Positions 157-6,719 of a stretch of 32,000 nucleotides of DNA are shown piece by piece; the first letter of the stretch is position 1; each line of letters opens with the position of its first letter. Origin of the DNA: Bacteroidota bacterium (GTDB lineage Bacteria > Bacteroidota > Bacteroidia > SXHM01). The notes under the pieces were generated by a model. It was not told the DNA's origin. It did not search any database and worked only from the letters and a program-made list of their open reading frames with translations. The position numbers and the translations under genes are program-made. Where the stretch lies: contig CANKAM010000003.1 in NCBI GenBank assembly GCA_947479755.1, positions 1-32,000 on the forward strand, read 5' to 3'.

Positions 157-1599
157 TTATTTTTTTCTGCTGGGCAGACCTAATTTCCATCTGATCATAT
201 CAGCTATTATAGGATAGATATCATTGTGCTTTGCTCCAAATCTGAATGTTTTTGCATTGGGATCAAATGCACCTAAATCTCTATTTTTTCCTTCATCATC
301 AGTTGGTAAATATTCTTTCAATTCAACAAGTCCTTCATTGATTTTTTCCTCATCAGTAAACGTGTAAAATCGCCACATTGCATTTGTATGGGAAAAATCT
401 ACGTTAAGAATATCCTCTGTTAATTTTCTTTGATTTTCTTTTGTTTTTAGCTCTTCATTCCTGCCAAAGAAAAAATCAAAATACAACTTAGCAATAGCCT
501 TCAATAAAACTGGTTGAGCAGCGACAGTTGTAAGTTTTGAATTTTCACTAGTAATACCAGGTAGATTTAAAACTGTATCCCAATATTTCTCAGCTCCTGC
601 TACTCTACTGTCAATAATAGCAGGTAAGGCTCCGTTAATATTGGTTTTGTTTAAAAGTAGAATTGCATTTATTGCAACCAATTCTTTACGACTTAAGCCG
701 CCTTTACCCCAGTCTGATTGATCTTTTTCTTGTACATCAAAATTAGCAGAATCAAATTTATCATCAACTAATACATTTTTAATAAATTGATTAATAGGGT
801 TTGATGAATCAAATTGAAATGCTAATGATTTTTCAACTTTCTTAGTAAGATTATTTAAATCATGAAACAGCTGTTTTTCCTGATCAAGTTCTAAACCCAA
901 GTGAACATCGAGAGTAACAGTACAATATTTTAATGCTTCTAAACAATCAACCCAAACCGCTAATTCATCTGATGATAATTCTTCTTTATTTGTTGATGGA
1001 AATAAAGAAGCTTTTGAAGGATACTTATGAAATGTGGTTACATGTTTCAAAAAATCCAAAACTATTTCTGCTGCTTTTCTTCTATGTTGACCATCTACGA
1101 TCCATAAAGTATCTCCTTGATTTAAAAATATTTTATACGCTATGGTTTCAGAATCAATCGTTGTCAATGTGATAACTCTGAGATTTGTGCCATTGGGTTT
1201 GCAGTTTCTGAATGAAGCAACAATAGGGGCTATTGAAAAATATGGTTGGTTTCCTACAGTATTTATTATTTCATTTATTTTTTCATTTTCACTTGCTTCA
1301 ACTCCCTGGTTTAATCTTTTTCTACGTGCGGCACCTAGTAATCCCTTTAGAATATATTTAGCTAAGGAAGTTGCATGCGGTAGATTTAAACTTCTCTGAG
1401 AAACTCCACTTGAATTTTTTGATTGATCATTTGCTACTTCTGTAAATTGCATTAGGTCAAATAATGACATATGAATGGTAAATATTTTATTACCGCAATT
1501 TACACCAACGAATGTTTTAATTGGTTTTCCTGATGAGTTTTGATTTGATAACGCTTCTTCAAGAGTTACAAATTCACTTGAGATTGATTTTGTAGTCAT
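157..1599 (-). CDS. DGQHR-domain protein (DndB-like, ParB/Srx-type nuclease superfamily)
   Basis: ORF track 157..1653. Contains WIVDGQHRRKAAEIV (DGQHR signature) and, downstream, QLFHDLNN (DndB-type QxFxDxN). Start moved to Met19 (ATG at 1597-1599): the first 18 codons (MNYSYLLCSHINQLIINK) overlap a -7-like box (reverse complement TTACTTTG at 1631-1638) and look non-protein-like. AT-rich codon usage unlike the rest of the window. Confidence 0.8.
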   Translation of the reverse strand: MTTKSISSEFVTLEEALSNQNSSGKPIKTFVGVNCGNKIFTIHMSLFDLMQFTEVANDQSKNSSGVSQRSLNLPHATSLAKYILKGLLGAARRKRLNQGVEASENEKINEIINTVGNQPYFSIAPIVASFRNCKPNGTNLRVITLTTIDSETIAYKIFLNQGDTLWIVDGQHRRKAAEIVLDFLKHVTTFHKYPSKASLFPSTNKEELSSDELAVWVDCLEALKYCTVTLDVHLGLELDQEKQLFHDLNNLTKKVEKSLAFQFDSSNPINQFIKNVLVDDKFDSANFDVQEKDQSDWGKGGLSRKELVAINAILLLNKTNINGALPAIIDSRVAGAEKYWDTVLNLPGITSENSKLTTVAAQPVLLKAIAKLYFDFFFGRNEELKTKENQRKLTEDILNVDFSHTNAMWRFYTFTDEEKINEGLVELKEYLPTDDEGKNRDLGAFDPNAKTFRFGAKHNDIYPIIADMIRWKLGLPSRKK

Positions 1600-1660
1600 T
1601 TTGTTTATGATTAATTGGTTTATATGGCTGCAAAGTAAATAAGAATAATTCAAATATAAT

Positions 1661-1770: not shown

Positions 1771-1897
1771 CTCCTCCAAGTAATCCATTTCCAAATCCAA
1801 CAAAAATTCAATATCCCTTTTCCTTCTTATTAAAAGCAATCCCCTTACCCCACCCTCCTCTGTAACCACCACCACCTAATTTTGAGTAAAGATTTCC

Positions 1898-2235
1898 CCG
1901 TTGTAACCGTTACAACGGCTTTTCCAAAATCGCTACCCCCTCCATAACGGTTATCAAATAGAATCCGCAATCCGACTCGATGCTATAACGGTTATGGCCA
2001 ATCCCAGATAATCCGACTCGCCTCCATAATGGTTATGGAGCAGAATCCGCAATCCGACTCGATGCCATAACGGTTATGGCCAATCACGGATAATCCGACT
2101 CGCCTCTAACAACGGTTATGGAGTAGAATCCGTAATCCGATTCGATGCCATAACGGTTATGGCCAATCACGGTCAATCCGATTCTCCTCCATAACGGTTA
2201 TGGAGGAGAATCCCAAATCCGACTCGCTTCCATAG
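1898..2235. repeat. Array of eight odd palindromes (core CCATAAC-G-GTTATGG) at 41-bp spacing; two alternating unit types give an 82-bp super-period
   Basis: Palindrome centres are at 1908, 1949, 1990, 2031, 2072, 2114, 2155 and 2196, giving spacings of 41, 41, 41, 41, 42, 41 and 41. Perfect arms: 10 bp at 1898-1918 (CCGTTGTAAC C GTTACAACGG), 8 bp at 2064-2080 and 2147-2163 (GCCATAAC G GTTATGGC), and 16 bp at 2180-2212 (GATTCTCCTCCATAAC G GTTATGGAGGAGAATC). Each unit also carries AATCCGACTCG (starts 1969, 2010, 2051, 2092, 2134, about 2175, and 2216). Confidence 0.9.
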
Positions 2236-2267: not shown

Positions 2268-2640
2268 GTTGCAGAAAAATATTTTTTGTGCTGAACAATA
2301 AATGAAATGTGGCTGCGTTAATATAAGTAGAGATGCTTCGACAAGCTCAGCATGACATCAACAAAAAAAATAATTTACATGCTACACAATAAATAAAAAT
2401 AACAGGCGTTACTAATAATAGATGCTTCGACAAGCTCAGCATGACAACAACCGAAAAAATAATTTACATGCTACACAATAATAAAATAAAAGCTGCGTTA
2501 ATAAGATATACAGGCATCAGATTACTGAACATAAAAAAAGGGAATAAAAAAATATTTTTTGCTCTACACAATAAATAAAAAACAACAGCGTTAATACTAT
2601 TAAAGATAAGGGCGACTGCCCTCACTAAAAGAAAACTAAA
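2268..2640. repeat. Four tandem ~90-bp AT-rich units (promoter-like A/T palindrome + CTACACAATAAATAAAA + GCGTTAATA + short hairpin)
   Basis: The ACAAT core starts at 2295, 2386, 2475 and 2568 (periods 91, 89, 93). GCGTTA is at 2315, 2406, 2495 and 2588. Units 1 and 2 end with the identical REP-like 27-mer AGATGCTTCGACAAGCTCAGCATGACA (2330-2356 and 2420-2446). Unit 4 ends with the hairpin AGGGC-GACT-GCCCT (2608-2622) and runs into the CA-rich leader of the 2680 ORF. Units 1 and 4 carry AAAAATATTTTTTG (one mismatch to TAnnTTTG). Confidence 0.8.
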
Positions 2641-2679
2641 CAATTAAGTTACAAAACAAAAACAAACAAAACAATCAAA

Positions 2680-3666
2680 ATGAGCACACCAGTTTTTTCT
2701 TTCACAGAAAACCCGTTTGATAACGGAACAAAAACCAGCAAAAAGAAAATGAACATTATAGCCGGAGACCATGTAAGTAAATTACATTCTCAAATGGCTA
2801 ACCCGCTTATCGCGGTGCTGTATGCCTTCTTCAATCCCATCCGGCAAAACTTCCTCAATAAATATTCGCAATGGATATCCGTGTCTGCTGCATATCATGG
2901 AGCCACGGTGGCTTTGGAGTTGCTGATGGCTCAGCTGAGGGGAGATAAGATAGAGGACTTTGATATACGTGTGCAGGTTGTTTATAAAAGAGGAACACCA
3001 CAATATGCTGCCTTGTTTCCTAACTTCCGTATTCCTTTTCAATCGGGCGGGTATGATGAAAGAATAGCCAAGCTCAAAGCGCTGGGCGAAGGGATGGATG
3101 TTGACCCTGCGTTTGCACTCATTAAAGCAGATGTGGATGCTTTTTACTTACTTATTTTTAATGCCCGTGATGCGCAGCAGGACCTGGAAGGATCAAAACA
3201 ATTTGTTTCAGATGAACTGGAGTTGCTGAGAATAGTTACTGCACAGGCGATGTATTATACACTGGGCGGATTGATGCAGGTGTTCAGCGTAAATACATTT
3301 CAGATTACCATGTTCTATGACCTTGAAACCCTGCGCGGACATATAACAGATACCATTGACCTGATCTTTGACGGTCCTGCAAATGGCAACACCATTGTAA
3401 ACGTGCTTGGCCCTGATGTATTACAATATCTTGCCGGTGTTACCCTGCGCATAAAAAACACAACAGCCGGTCCTGCTATTGGCGGCTTGTTTTTCTACGC
3501 TGCCGATAACGCTACTGACGGCTGGAACGGTCTTGGTCAGCAACTGAACCCCGGTGAGGAGGCTATCATCACACTCACTGCTGCACAATTCAGAGCATTC
3601 TTTAATGTGCAGAACCAGGGGCCAAATTTGCAGACTTACGAGGTGGAGATTATGTTGCCTGAGTAA
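2680..3666 (+). CDS. Hypothetical protein, 328 aa, no family recognised (helical N-terminal ~220 aa, beta-rich C-terminal ~100 aa; no signal peptide)
   Basis: ORF track. Long clean ORF with the base composition of the host part of the window. Preceded by the unstructured leader ACAAAACAAAAACAAACAAAACAATCAAA-ATG, typical of well-translated Bacteroidota genes. A terminator lies downstream at 3826-3872. Confidence 0.7.
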   Translation: MSTPVFSFTENPFDNGTKTSKKKMNIIAGDHVSKLHSQMANPLIAVLYAFFNPIRQNFLNKYSQWISVSAAYHGATVALELLMAQLRGDKIEDFDIRVQVVYKRGTPQYAALFPNFRIPFQSGGYDERIAKLKALGEGMDVDPAFALIKADVDAFYLLIFNARDAQQDLEGSKQFVSDELELLRIVTAQAMYYTLGGLMQVFSVNTFQITMFYDLETLRGHITDTIDLIFDGPANGNTIVNVLGPDVLQYLAGVTLRIKNTTAGPAIGGLFFYAADNATDGWNGLGQQLNPGEEAIITLTAAQFRAFFNVQNQGPNLQTYEVEIMLPE

Positions 3667-3668
3667 TA

Positions 3669-3730
3669 ACACTTCGACAGGCTCAGTGTGACTACGGTGT
3701 AGGGGTCATCCTGAGCTTGTCGAAGGAGTG
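3669..3730. repeat. REP-like inverted pair forming a long hairpin (CTTCGACAGGCTCAG ... CTGAGCTTGTCGAAG)
   Basis: 3672-3686 pairs with 3711-3725 over 15 bp with one G-T wobble. Same family as the single copies at 2330-2356 and 2420-2446. Confidence 0.75.
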
Positions 3731-3734
3731 TGAT

Positions 3735-3810
3735 GGTAAATAAATGAGTATTGATATACTGTTGTCTGCTAAACAACAGCGCTAAGGGCGGCCCCTAAAA
3801 AAACTAAACC
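3735..3810. repeat. Fifth, degenerate copy of the ~90-bp unit, downstream of the 328-aa ORF
   Basis: GGTAAATAAATGA (compare unit 1, ACAATAAATGAAA). 3771-3809, AAACAACAGCGCTAAGGGCGGCCCCTAAAAAAACTAAAC, shares the exact strings AACAACAGCG, TAAGGGCG and AAACTAAAC with 2578-2641 of unit 4. Confidence 0.5.
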
Positions 3811-3825
3811 CGGGTTGCACTTACA

Positions 3826-3872
3826 AAAAGCCCCTTAGCTCTACAACGGTAGAGCGGGGGGTTTTCTTTTTT
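3826..3872. terminator. Bidirectional intrinsic terminator between convergent genes
   Basis: AAAAAGCCCC-TTA-GCTCTAC-AACG-GTAGAGC-G-GGGGG followed by TTTTCTTTTTT on the + strand. The complementary strand has the same stem followed by CTTTTTG. Confidence 0.6.
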
Positions 3873-3947
3873 CGTCATTGCGAGGGTTTTTCACCCGAAG
3901 CAATCTGTTTCAAATTGTGAGATTGCTTCGCTTCGCTCGCAATGACG
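3873..3947. repeat. REP-like long hairpin (CGTCATTGCGAG ... CTCGCAATGACG family)
   Basis: 3873-3884 pairs with 3936-3947. An inner stem CGAAGCAATCT / AGATTGCTTCG is also present. It abuts the stop codon of the cyclase gene and is followed by TTTTT on the + strand. Confidence 0.7.
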
Positions 3948-3950
3948 TTT

Positions 3951-5744
3951 TTATTTCACCTCCACAAAATACATCTCCACTTCACCCTTGCCCTTTGCTT
4001 TTATTTTTCCGCGCGTTGTGCAGTTGAATTTCTTTTTCACCAGTTCATACGTAGCACCTGAGATATTTATTTTTCCTGCTTCGCCACTGCTTTCCATGCG
4101 CGATGCGGTGTTTACGGTATCGCCCCAGATATCGTAAGCAAACTTTTTAGTACCTACCACTCCGGCAACCACAGGTCCGGTATGTATTCCAATGCGTACA
4201 TCAAAAAAGTGCTGCTTCTTTTTCTGGCGTTCTTTTTTCAGCTTGTTCAGAAAGTCAAGCATTTCAATTGCTGCTTTAATAACATCAACAGCATTGGTTT
4301 TATTAGCTGTTGGCAAGCCTCCGGCACACATGTAGCTGTCACCGATTGTTTTTATTTTCTCTACATTATACTTTGGCAATATGCGGTCGAACGCACCAAA
4401 GATCATATCCAGTTCACTTACCAATTCCTCGGCTGATAATTTTTCGGCCTGCTCGGTAAAGCCTTTGAAATCCGTAAAAAGAACGCTTACCATTTTGTAT
4501 TTGCGCGGAGCAACACGTGCATTTTTCTTCAACTCTTCGGCAACCTCAGCAGGAAGAATATTCAGCAACAACTCATCTGACTTGCGTTTTTCTTCAGTAA
4601 TAACTTTGCTCTGCTTTTGAATTTTATCGTTCTTCTTTTTCAGCTCAACGTTGCGCAGTTTAAAAATCTCTGCTTCTCTGCGGCTCTTTTCTGTTTCGTA
4701 TCCTGTTACCAGTTCATTAAGTCTGTTGCGCGCTTCCTGACTGAACAGTTCATCGTGCAACTGAAAAAATTTCAGATGGTTTTTGTAGGCTTCTTCATAA
4801 TCACCAACCTTTGCATAACTCTGCGAAATCTCTTTGTAAATATCTTTTTCAAGAGGTTTTGCATTGGAGTTGGCAATCAGGTCTAAGGCAATTTTCTGAT
4901 ACTTCACCGCATTCTTCTGGTCCCCTTTTGCGCGATACAGATTTCCGATATTACTGTAAGTTGATGCAATGCCTTTGGTATCGCCAATGCTTTCTTTCAG
5001 CATTACCGATTTCATAAAATACTTGAGCGCATCATCAAATTTTCCCTGCTTCTCATAAACTAATCCAATGTTGTTGGTAATGAGCGAGAGGTTTTTTTTG
5101 TCACCAATTCCTTCAGCAATTTCCAGCGCTTTTTTGTTGTATTCAATTGCTTTGCTGTCGTTACCTGTTTGCCTGTGAATGTTGGCAATATTGCCCAACA
5201 CCATTATCAACCCTGAGGTTTCTTTTGCTTTGTTATTTATCTCCAATGCTTTTTCAAAATACTGAAGCGCTTTGTTAAACTCGCCCTGCACTTTATACAA
5301 TACTCCCAGGTTGTTATTGGCCGATGCCATTCCTTTCTTGTCATCAATCTCTTCAAATATTTTAAGGGCTTGCATGTGGGCATCCAGCGAGCCGTCCATG
5401 GAGCCTTTGCTCTTGTTCACCACTCCGCTGGCATTAAGCGATTCGGCCATCTGCTTTTTCATCTTCAGCCCCGAATAATAATCGCTGGCTTTATGCAAAT
5501 GGTCAAGAGCAGAGTTGATATTGCTTTGATTGAAATAGGCAATACCTAAATTATAATGACATTCGGCTGCGCCTTTTTTGTAACCCTTTTTTTCGGATTG
5601 AGCTAAAGCTGCAAGAGCCAGTTCAATGCTTTGTGCCGCATTTTCCTGACGCAGTTGTATGGCCTGTTTAATAAGCCCGTCAACATCAGGGCTTGTTTTC
5701 TTTATCACGGGTTTCAGATATACCTTCTTTTCTGTCATAAACAT
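3951..5744 (-). CDS. TPR-repeat sensor fused to a class III adenylate/guanylate cyclase domain
   Basis: The N-terminal ~330 aa are TPR repeats (NLGVLYKVQGEFNKALQYFEKAL and similar), followed by a coiled coil. The C-terminus carries FTDFKGFT...IKTIGDSYMCAGGLP...VRIGIHTGPVVAGVVGTKKFAYDIWGDTVNTASRMES, the classic class III cyclase motifs. Confidence 0.9.
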   Translation of the reverse strand: MFMTEKKVYLKPVIKKTSPDVDGLIKQAIQLRQENAAQSIELALAALAQSEKKGYKKGAAECHYNLGIAYFNQSNINSALDHLHKASDYYSGLKMKKQMAESLNASGVVNKSKGSMDGSLDAHMQALKIFEEIDDKKGMASANNNLGVLYKVQGEFNKALQYFEKALEINNKAKETSGLIMVLGNIANIHRQTGNDSKAIEYNKKALEIAEGIGDKKNLSLITNNIGLVYEKQGKFDDALKYFMKSVMLKESIGDTKGIASTYSNIGNLYRAKGDQKNAVKYQKIALDLIANSNAKPLEKDIYKEISQSYAKVGDYEEAYKNHLKFFQLHDELFSQEARNRLNELVTGYETEKSRREAEIFKLRNVELKKKNDKIQKQSKVITEEKRKSDELLLNILPAEVAEELKKNARVAPRKYKMVSVLFTDFKGFTEQAEKLSAEELVSELDMIFGAFDRILPKYNVEKIKTIGDSYMCAGGLPTANKTNAVDVIKAAIEMLDFLNKLKKERQKKKQHFFDVRIGIHTGPVVAGVVGTKKFAYDIWGDTVNTASRMESSGEAGKINISGATYELVKKKFNCTTRGKIKAKGKGEVEMYFVEVK

Positions 5745-5849: not shown

Positions 5850-6719
5850 ATGAATAAGCTATTTCATATAACAGCCCTGCTATTAGGCCTTACTACGCTG
5901 ATTGTTTCGTGCAATAACGATGATGAAGGCGATGACCTGAATGCCGTTTACAACAATGCTGCTTCGCAAACAACTTATAACGATGTGGCCAGCATTGGTG
6001 ATGAGTCGGTTATTGATGATGACCTGAGTTCATTTAAAATGGAGGACATGGAAAAGATTTCTTCGCCCTGCGCTACCATAACTAAAGGCGATACCAATGA
6101 TTTGCCTAATGTTACCACTATTGATTTTGGCAGCACCAACTGCCTGTGCAACGATGGCAAAAACCGCAGAGGCAAAATTGTGATGAACCACCCACCGCCT
6201 TCTTTAGCCAGAGATTCCGGGGCACTTTTTCATCATGAATTTATTGACTTTTATGTAAACGATAATAAGGTACTGGGCTATATTAATGTTACCAATTTCG
6301 GTTTAAGCCCTGATGGTTTTAAACATTTTAAATGGGATATTGTTGGCGGTCTTGAATTAGCCGATGGTGCAGGAACCACTTCCTGGGAGAGCCACCAGGT
6401 GATTGCTTACCTCGCAGGTTTTAACACCCCTAATACCCGTCTGGATGACAAAATTGGCATCAACGGAGGAAGCAGCGGAACCTCACAAACGGGAGAAACC
6501 TTTACAGCTCAAATCGATTCATTAAATCCGTTGAGGCGAAGTTTTTCAATAGGCTGCCGCAAACACTTTTTTGCGGGAACGGCTTTTATTACTCCTCAGG
6601 GCAAACCGATGCGTACCATTAATTATGGTGAAGCTAACCCCGAAATATGCGATGATGTGGCTACCGTTACAGTAAACGGAAATACCTATACCATCAGCCT
6701 GGATAATACACACGAGTAG
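5850..6719 (+). CDS. Lipoprotein of unknown function
   Basis: Signal peptide with lipobox MNKLFHITALLLGLTTLIVS-C, followed by an Asp-rich linker. No family recognised. Confidence 0.75.
   Translation: MNKLFHITALLLGLTTLIVSCNNDDEGDDLNAVYNNAASQTTYNDVASIGDESVIDDDLSSFKMEDMEKISSPCATITKGDTNDLPNVTTIDFGSTNCLCNDGKNRRGKIVMNHPPPSLARDSGALFHHEFIDFYVNDNKVLGYINVTNFGLSPDGFKHFKWDIVGGLELADGAGTTSWESHQVIAYLAGFNTPNTRLDDKIGINGGSSGTSQTGETFTAQIDSLNPLRRSFSIGCRKHFFAGTAFITPQGKPMRTINYGEANPEICDDVATVTVNGNTYTISLDNTHE

Follow-up and report, generated by a model that had tools for sequence, protein, structure and literature searches.

In a 32,000-nt stretch of chromosomal Bacteroidota DNA (the window; ~41% G+C), four head-to-tail units of ~90 bp stand in front of the open reading frame (ORF) of an uncharacterised protein of 328 amino acids (aa). 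Judged by their sequence, these units are probably stacked promoter modules of the extracytoplasmic function (ECF) type, all co-directional and each with a 5′-proximal stem-loop, which would feed the 328-aa gene and raise its induced expression; we give this reading a probability of roughly 0.6. Amplified promoter or leader modules that boost or tune expression of the 328-aa protein were one of several options raised in the initial annotation of this DNA, and this is the option that the sequence evidence favours. The coordinates of the features are collected in Table 1.

The repeat has a 60-nt core that occurs four times, at 2275, 2366, 2455 and 2548, with 60–75% identity to the first copy. 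The head-to-tail arrangement and the offsets of 91, 89 and 93 bp, both given in the initial annotation, are borne out by our repeat search, although TRF reports only the most similar pair, units 2 and 3 (period 89). Indeed, the 17-mer CTACACAATAAATAAAA with up to three mismatches has four matches in 32 kb, all inside the units, where 0.32 are expected, and none of 100 shuffles reached four. Every unit has the same order of conserved blocks with constant distances: an A/T tract, then ACAAT and, after exactly 16 nt, CGTTA. The true palindrome AAAAATATTTTTTG is found at 2275–2288 and 2548–2561, AATAATTTACATG is present in units 2 and 3, and GCGTTA(A/C)TA is present in all four units. The longer consensus first proposed, CT(A/G)(C/A)ACAATAAAT(A/G)AAA, holds for units 1, 2 and 4, but not for unit 3, which reads CTACACAATAATAAAAT. 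As had been noted, and as can be read directly in the sequence, only the last unit continues into a CA/A-rich leader, which has no Shine-Dalgarno sequence and joins unit 4 to the ATG at 2680.

Relatives were gathered from 28 protein clusters, their contigs, a genome-collection scan and a metagenome scan for two adjacent units; individual loci are designated by L numbers. The gap-free alignment of 29 distinct units from 10 loci gives the consensus aAAAAaATAtTTT-N9-ACAATAAa-N12-GCGTTAata. The spacer between ACAAT and CGTTA is 16 nt in all 29 of these units, in a search that allowed 14–16 nt, and its sequence varies; a fixed spacer length with free spacer sequence is typical of a promoter spacer. 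Mini-ORFs within the units (ATG CTA CAC AAT AAA TAA in unit 2) were also considered and rejected, as they are not conserved in units 1 and 4, in L002 or in L025.

The identity of the putative promoter class comes from comparison with SM6, a sigma-ECF promoter motif described in Flavobacterium psychrophilum from 5′-end RNA-seq (Guerin et al. 2021, PMC9723704). In the rows of Table S2 of that study on which we draw, the promoter of the small RNA (sRNA) Rfp11 reads ACAAT-N16-CGTTATAATTATG (−10 box CGTTA) with the RNA start 12 nt past the C, that of gldN reads ACAAT-N16-CGTTT, that of yceA ACAAC-N16-CGTTT, that of a Band-7 gene GTAAC-N16-CGTAT and that of THC0290_0621 ATACT-N16-CGTTT. According to the passages on SM6 in the same source, the −10 element has a conserved CGT, Rfp11 ends in a terminator with a T-run, and the SM6 regulon responds to low-nutrient or fresh water. 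An ECF sigma/anti-sigma pair, THC0290_1774/1773, is linked to SM6. ACAAT and CGTTA, the two most conserved blocks of the units, are letter for letter the Rfp11 boxes of this table, at the identical 16-nt spacing. CGTTA, and with it the CGT, is found in all four units and in 29 of 29 distinct units of relatives; a −35 pentamer of the form (A/G)(C/T)AA(C/T) stands 16 nt before the CGT in every unit, which is the spacing of the five SM6 rows; and the boxes lie upstream of the gene, on the same strand and at promoter distance. By sequence, the unit core qualifies as a member of the SM6/ECF promoter class.

The distribution of the motif is also that expected of a promoter tied to this gene family. 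A relaxed pattern, [AG][CT]AA[CT]-N16/17-CGT[AT][AT], occurs at 3.21 per kb within 450 nt 5′ of family genes on the gene strand, compared to 0.081 per kb elsewhere. This 40-fold enrichment supports a link between the units and the family, as does the metagenome scan for adjacent unit pairs, which found four contigs: a family gene lies downstream in the two that can be read further, L025 among them, and the other two are cut at the contig end. The initial annotation had allowed that the unit might be a dispersed repeat without such a link. In the 32-kb window, the degenerate pattern is observed six times with 3.1 expected; four of the matches are the units and two lie inside genes, and we estimate the chance rate at ~0.01 per 90-nt unit. 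The distance from the proximal ACAAT to the ATG is 96–113 nt in eight of eight multi-unit loci. Moreover, an AraC-family gene has a single module with the A/T tract of the units (TAAATATTTT...ACAAT-N16-CGTTA) 29 nt ahead of its ATG (L020 491–520, L021 495–524), and thus the motif behaves as a promoter would, even at an unrelated gene. That AraC-family gene sits directly upstream of a 21-bp repeat array (see below) and its family gene, which suggests a possible cascade from sigma factor to regulator to array at these two loci.

Among orthologues, the units are more conserved than the gene they precede. Nucleotide identity to the window over units 3 and 4 and the leader is 88% in L002, 87% in L033 and 76% in L026, but that of the coding sequence is only 69, 69 and 64%, and the proteins are 62, 58 and 56% identical (98% in L006). 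The window, L006 and L033 have four units, and L002, L026 and L025 have five; at least three or at least two are seen where a contig end cuts the series. Modules are found in 4–5 copies among orthologues whose proteins are 56–98% identical, with a spacing of 78–105 bp over all loci, and single units can be matched between genomes: units 1, 2, 3 and 4 of the window correspond to units 1, 3, 4 and 5 of L002, and unit 3, from ACAAT to the hairpin, is nearly invariant in the window, L006, L007, L002, L030 and L033. That 4–5 orthologous modules are maintained where proteins are only 56–63% identical suggests that promoter dosage is under selection. In L026, the units form a two-unit higher-order repeat. 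The distant paralogue of L025 (reverse complement; units 4012–4402, gene 4473–5474; protein 31% identical to P0022) is preceded by five units homogenised to near identity, with no phased array, and its protein has a CarboxypepD_reg-like domain in place of the jelly-roll domain described below. The isolate codes of the relatives' metagenome-assembled genomes (MAGs) resemble lake-sampling labels, as we read them; no habitat field was seen.

If the units are promoters, each module would consist of a UP-element-like A/T tract (about −57 to −45), the −35 element ACAAT, a 16-nt spacer, the −10 element CGTTA and a start ~12 nt past the C of CGT, with a short stem-loop a few nucleotides into each transcript that may stabilise it. 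The position of the tract is presumably that of an UP element, as in Escherichia coli. Because the modules point the way of the 328-aa gene, with no terminator in between, the mRNAs from the four starts would be nested, all of this one gene, and have leaders of ~352, 261, 172 and 79 nt. We place these starts near 2328, 2419, 2508 and 2601 and not near 2292, 2383, 2472 and 2565 as in the initial annotation, because ACAAT...GCGTTA, there taken as transcribed sequence, is likely the −35/−10 pair. The footprint of RNA polymerase is ~75 bp; as the ~90-bp spacing exceeds it, simultaneous loading of several polymerases is sterically possible. We infer that the modules fire, that an ECF-type sigma factor drives them and that their output adds up, such that the array would multiply initiation while the sigma factor is active.

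Several observations weigh against this explanation. SM6 was mapped in Flavobacteriia, a different class from the relatives studied here (MAGs with the label Chitinophaga or Bacteroidia), the ‘AAC’ canonical for ECF promoters is missing from ACAAT, and protein-family scans of the ORFs in the 32-kb window found no ECF sigma gene. In the last unit of L002, a GC palindrome stands where the A/T palindrome would be, a hint that palindromic character is perhaps more important than UP-like composition. The sequence 3′ of CGTTA is strongly conserved in units 3 and 4 (30–50 nt); a promoter alone does not account for this, and some function in the RNA may lie behind it. Additive output is an assumption, as downstream promoters might occlude those upstream or suffer interference from them. 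Finally, the conservation in relatives that keep the ORF, on which the initial annotation had let its proposal depend, is found in only part of the family: units 3 and 4 with the leader are 76–88% identical in nucleotides in L002, L033 and L026, but L001 and L029 retain the ORF with one degenerate unit and L032 and L005 with none. The unit array is thus not essential to the gene and is a feature of a subgroup. As a separate matter, RNA-guided transcription by a dCas12f-sigmaE system (PMC13472631) was considered and rejected, as scans of the window ORFs gave no Cas domain or ECF sigma factor and no guide-like feature was seen.

The units could instead be four promoters for sigma-A, with the A/T palindrome as a near-consensus −7 box and starts near the four positions first proposed. 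The tract is conserved in most units, and TATTTTTTG and TAATTTACATG do resemble TAnnTTTG. However, no exact TAnnTTTG occurs in 2268–2679 on either strand, the tracts reading TA-N3-TTTG or lacking the G, and the −33 TTTG that belongs to a sigma-A promoter is absent as well. Among the 29 units the G of the tract is not conserved, and the A-run upstream of it is; in the gene-proximal unit of L002 the tract is missing altogether, yet ACAAT...CGTTA is unchanged. The box itself is in use in this genome to judge from its positions, since TAnnTTTG lies 16–94 nt upstream of six other window genes, and a scan for sigma-70-type promoters gave none in the units, as expected for Bacteroidota. We consider sigma-A promoters at these units improbable. 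The hairpins are the basis of a further proposal, in which the units are tandem sRNA genes, each with its own promoter and each yielding a short RNA that ends at the unit hairpin. Head-to-tail ~90-bp units with a promoter-like core would suit such genes, and identical promoter boxes drive the sRNA Rfp11 in the F. psychrophilum table (PMC9723704). The hairpins described initially can indeed be read in the sequence: an identical 27-mer, AGATGCTTCGACAAGCTCAGCATGACA, in units 1 and 2 (2331–2357 and 2420–2446), TCAG-ATTA-CTGA in unit 3 (2517–2528) and AGGGC-GACT-GCCCT in unit 4 (2609–2622). That of unit 4, with the stem GGGC/GCCC, is stable (−8.2 kcal/mol; RNA-fold z-score against shuffles −2.45) and partly covarying, with a compensatory change in two of five pairs among seven orthologues; those of units 1–3 are not significantly stable (z-scores +0.8, 0.0 and −1.4). 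The claim that they terminate transcripts does not hold: neither a terminator scan nor direct reading gave a hairpin with a T-run on the plus strand of 2268–2640, unlike the clear T-run of the gene's own terminator at 3830–3873 and that of the Rfp11 terminator. Furthermore, the hairpin region after CGTTA, which would be the transcribed part of an sRNA, is the least conserved part of the unit and is non-homologous between units and between orthologues. In Rfam, neither the window nor any of 20 related loci gave a match at gathering score; the initial annotation had likewise known of no described Bacteroidota element with this layout. Tandem sRNA genes have in our view only a slim chance of being the explanation, and the absence from the units of both terminators and a competing TAnnTTTG is a further reason to favour the promoter array.

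Somewhat more weight, within what is still an unlikely range, can be given to repeats that act in RNA: the region would be one long 5′ untranslated region, perhaps transcribed from the TAATTTTG box at 1877, with the A-rich ACAAUAAAUAAAA and GCGUUA as repeated sites for an RNA-binding regulator, or with ‘decoy leaders’ that tune translation or stability. This box is the sole exact sigma-A −7 box of the intergenic region and lies 5′ of everything else; L002 has TTATTTTG at the place matching 1877–1884. It is possible that a sigma-A promoter here reads through array and units and starts a long leader, but ~0.5 TAnnTTTG matches are expected by chance in the intergenic region by our estimate, and the box is only a lead. 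The conservation past CGTTA in units 3 and 4 would also suit sites in RNA. A permissive Rfam search gave CrcZ-like A-rich matches only; at 10.6–16.8 bits, compared to a gathering score of 95, we rejected a CrcZ identity as chance or composition, and the A-richness of the motifs accounts for these weak matches. Against sites in RNA, the fixed 16-nt spacing, the free spacer sequence and the exact match to mapped −35/−10 boxes fit recognition of DNA by a sigma factor better, the motif also stands 29 nt before the unrelated AraC-family gene, L033 keeps four units in spite of lacking both the upstream array and the 1877-type region, and no conserved RNA structure spans the blocks. As for the ‘decoy leaders’ of the initial annotation, no result points to them. 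Least probable by far is a functionless minisatellite or dispersed selfish repeat. REP-like elements do occur inside units 1 and 2 and flank the ORF, and the homogenised units of L025 and the higher-order repeat of L026 are signs of unequal crossing-over. Nevertheless, orthologues conserve the units better than the coding sequence, single units are orthologous between genomes, adjacent pairs occur in only four metagenome contigs with the family gene following wherever downstream DNA is visible, and the distance from unit to ATG is constant; this reading is already largely refuted.

The 27-mer of units 1 and 2 belongs to a family of REP-like elements with 21 matches in 230 kb of loci, a conserved loop TTCGACnnGCTCAG and covarying 3–4-bp stems (ATGC/GCAT, CCC/GGG, ACAC/GTGT, TCC/GGA). 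Besides the two sites in units, members lie at 3672–3692 and 3705–3725 (minus strand) of the window and in L006, L007, L014, L019 and L030. A short hairpin at many intergenic sites describes the 27-mer, and not the whole ~90-bp unit. In both the window and L006, units 1 and 2 carry the 27-mer after CGTTA; at that place, the orthologous units of L002 and L033 have unrelated inserts.

Immediately 5′ of the units, the window has a separate tandem array with a period of 41 bp (Table 1), on which the initial annotation was silent, as it was on a decayed copy of unit 4 at 3729–3809. The first copy reads TTGTAACCGTTACAA, which we regard as the ‘ancestral’ form, and the remaining copies read CCATAACGGTTATGG. 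Similar 41-bp arrays are found in L001 (3581–3879), L002 (3089–3457), L005 (3705–3934), L006 (2233–2541), L026 (reverse complement, 3336–3720), L029 (1–335) and L032 (2640–2860), and the period is exactly 41 in eight arrays. The palindromes of orthologues differ: CCATAAC-G-GTTATGG, TGTAAC-G-GTTACA, TGTGGC-G-GCCACA, CCGTAAC-G-GTTACGG and GTTGGGG-AAA-CCCCAAC. Such change is concerted even where the proteins are 98% identical, as between the window and L006. In 43 distinct array copies, all six stem pairs have compensatory changes, 86% of cells are paired and the covariation score is 0.589, compared to 70% and 0.303 in shuffles; none of 500 shuffles reached either the score or the pairing value. 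Thus the palindromes covary within a strictly periodic, head-to-tail array with a conserved palindromic core, an organisation like that of iterons.

Distant paralogues have arrays of another kind, with 5–15 direct repeats at an exact 21-bp period, a paralogue-specific core of 12–13 nt and a variable linker, 100–450 bp upstream of the ATG. These are found in L010 (1793–1929), L011 (1995–2137), L012 (2015–2179), L013 (~1985–2080), L015 (2055–2166), L016 (~1990–2110), L019 (1690–1978), L020 (1616–1903), L021 (1572–1894), L022 (1–82) and L024 (2606–2909). Most family members carry their own private array upstream, and in ~190 kb of loci all TRF matches with periods of at least 25 fall in the upstream array regions of family genes. 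Arrays and promoter units are separable, since L033 has units without an array and L032 an array without units. In L013 and L016 (both ~2275–2295), a sigma-54-like element, GGCAC-N5-(A/C)TGC, lies 40–60 nt before the ATG of one paralogue; because of this element, family members seem to use different sigma factors, all keeping the upstream array. No conserved regulator gene was found in cis next to the arrays.

The periods of 21 and 41–43 bp correspond to two and four helical turns, which suggests phased protein binding on DNA. The sopC site of the F plasmid has 43-bp units, each with a palindrome, parC iterons lie upstream of parR, and regulators of the AraC or LytTR type bind 21-bp-phased direct repeats; by analogy, the arrays may be phased protein-binding sites of a comparable kind. 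It is also possible that the array is an RNA hairpin array in a long leader from the 1877 box. The mismatch types, from which the strand might be told, are uninformative (6 G-U versus 14 A-C). More tentatively, and at well under even odds, arrays and units may form a two-tier repeat architecture that controls a large family: a private phased array (period 21 bp or, where the units hold a covarying palindrome, 41 bp), joined in some branches by a multiplied ECF promoter block. The array might then act as a paralogue-specific enhancer or iteron, or as an RNA hairpin array, and might possibly be read by the encoded coiled-coil/jelly-roll protein itself. Such a cis-regulatory system, if real, would be of a kind not yet described, as far as literature and Rfam searches reach.

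The 328-aa protein has no match in Pfam, NCBIfam, PHROGs, PADLOC or a PDB sequence search, and it has no relatives in IMG/VR. A profile search of 1.84 billion representatives, however, gave at least 1,501 clusters (50% identity) at E ≤ 1e-3, and 417 at E ≤ 1e-30; the protein is a member of a large cellular family without annotation. The AlphaFold model (pLDDT 89) has two helices of ~60 residues that form a long coiled-coil hairpin, and a C-terminal jelly-roll-like beta sandwich. With this model, Foldseek gave weak jelly-roll/cupin and PirA matches for the C-terminal domain only (E 2e-3) and phage tail matches with poor TM; in these structure searches the predicted fold includes no recognisable DNA-binding fold.

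The units lie in a non-coding stretch of 1,026 bp between the 328-aa ORF and a solitary gene with a DndB/DGQHR domain (157–1653, minus strand; Pfam DndB, E 2e-31), for which no dndCDE partners are visible in the window. A 22-bp tandem repeat (1652–1700; 2.3 copies, core CCTGGATGTAAATAT) abuts the start of this DndB-like gene and may be its operator. On the other side of the 328-aa ORF, the segment with the decayed copy is kept in L002 and L030 and absent in L006 and L033; as it is lacking even in L006, which encodes a protein 98% identical to that of the window, the locus is a recombination mosaic. The intrinsic terminator of the gene was read directly from the sequence, a simple terminator scan having left it unlisted owing to its long interrupted stem. 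A long inverted repeat of a second kind (CGTCATTGCGAG...GAAGCAATCT / AGATTGCTTC...CTCGCAATGACG) occupies 3875–3950, between this terminator and the stop codon of a convergent gene (3951–5744, minus strand) for a TPR protein with a class III nucleotidyl cyclase domain (weak PycC-like match). This gene is followed by an unknown ORF of 289 aa (5850–6719, plus strand). Both adjoin the 328-aa gene in L002, L030 and L033 as well, and they may be its functional partners. The other genes of the window include an RND efflux operon, a GH125 gene, a gene for a SprB/T9SS protein and other ordinary genes.

Table 1. Features of the unit region and its surroundings (window coordinates)
Feature	Position	Strand	Details
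Tandem array	1893..2234	.	period 41 (82) bp, ~8 copies, a 6–9-bp palindrome in each; separate module from the units
TAATTTTG	1877..1884	+	sole exact TAnnTTTG between the DndB-like gene and the 328-aa ORF; first array hairpin ~12 nt further on
Unit 1	2275..2365	+	A/T palindrome 2275–2288; −35-like ACAAT 2295–2299; −10-like CGTTA 2316–2320; predicted start ~2328; REP-like 27-mer hairpin 2331–2357; A-rich tail
Unit 2	2366..2454	+	A/T tract 2366–2378; ACAAT 2386–2390; CGTTA 2407–2411; predicted start ~2419; 27-mer 2420–2446
Unit 3	2455..2547	+	A/T tract 2455–2467; ACAAT 2475–2479; CGTTA 2496–2500; predicted start ~2508; weak 4-bp hairpin 2517–2528
Unit 4 and leader	2548..2679	+	A/T palindrome 2546–2561; ACAAT 2568–2572; CGTTA 2589–2593; predicted start ~2601; 5-bp GC hairpin 2609–2622
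328-aa ORF downstream of the units	2680..3666	+	uncharacterised family
Decayed partial copy of unit 4 and leader, 3′ of the 328-aa ORF	3729..3809	+	CGT to CGC; ~22-nt insertion
Intrinsic terminator of the 328-aa gene	3830..3873	+	GC-rich hairpin, then TTTTCTTTTTT

If the units are promoters, they would be a case of natural, evolutionarily maintained promoter multiplication with a concrete prediction, four phased transcription starts. An ECF promoter class defined by experiment in Flavobacterium would thereby reach MAGs that carry the label Chitinophaga or Bacteroidia and be tied to an abundant unannotated gene family, and engineering of Bacteroidota would gain a candidate for a strong, inducible promoter cassette. 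The private phased arrays open the regulation and function of the family to direct study, and our comparison suggests that a locus with such arrays is more unusual than the unit array alone. Literature searches on tandem ECF promoters or on phased arrays of 21 bp gave no match.

Among known systems, the closest in sequence are the SM6 promoters of F. psychrophilum, also a member of the Bacteroidota, which in the rows of the published table that we used share the −35 element (ACAAT/ACAAC/GTAAC), the 16-nt spacer and the −10 element CGT(T/A)(T/A) (PMC9723704); those are single promoters, whereas here 4–5 homologous modules stand ~90 bp apart, each with an A/T tract and a 5′ stem-loop. With REP/BIME-type elements, the locus shares a dispersed family of small hairpins, to which the 27-mer belongs and which is also found 3′ of the ORF and in five other loci, but the 27-mer is a mere passenger within two of the four units. 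Similarly, iteron- or centromere-like arrays have head-to-tail units at whole helical turns (21 or 41–43 bp) with a conserved core just 5′ of a gene; the arrays described here differ in that they are chromosomal, with one private array per paralogue and no par genes. The tandem sRNAs LhrC1-5 of Listeria and PrrF1/PrrF2 of Pseudomonas are also head-to-tail units of ~100 bp with a promoter each, but they have Rho-independent terminators and a conserved transcribed part, whereas the units here have no terminators and their transcribed part is variable. Finally, natural tandem promoters exist, such as P1 and P2 of the E. coli rrn operons, and multi-copy promoter clusters have been engineered; in both, as would be the case here, several co-directional promoters serve one transcription unit and raise or diversify its output. 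To our knowledge, the natural examples consist of two or three non-homologous promoters of the sigma-70 type, whereas the array upstream of the 328-aa gene consists of 4–5 duplicated modules of putative ECF type, orthologous across genomes with proteins 56–63% identical. Thus tandem promoters as such are already known, but 4–5 duplicated ECF-type modules kept as orthologous units across genera would be new, as far as literature searches reach.

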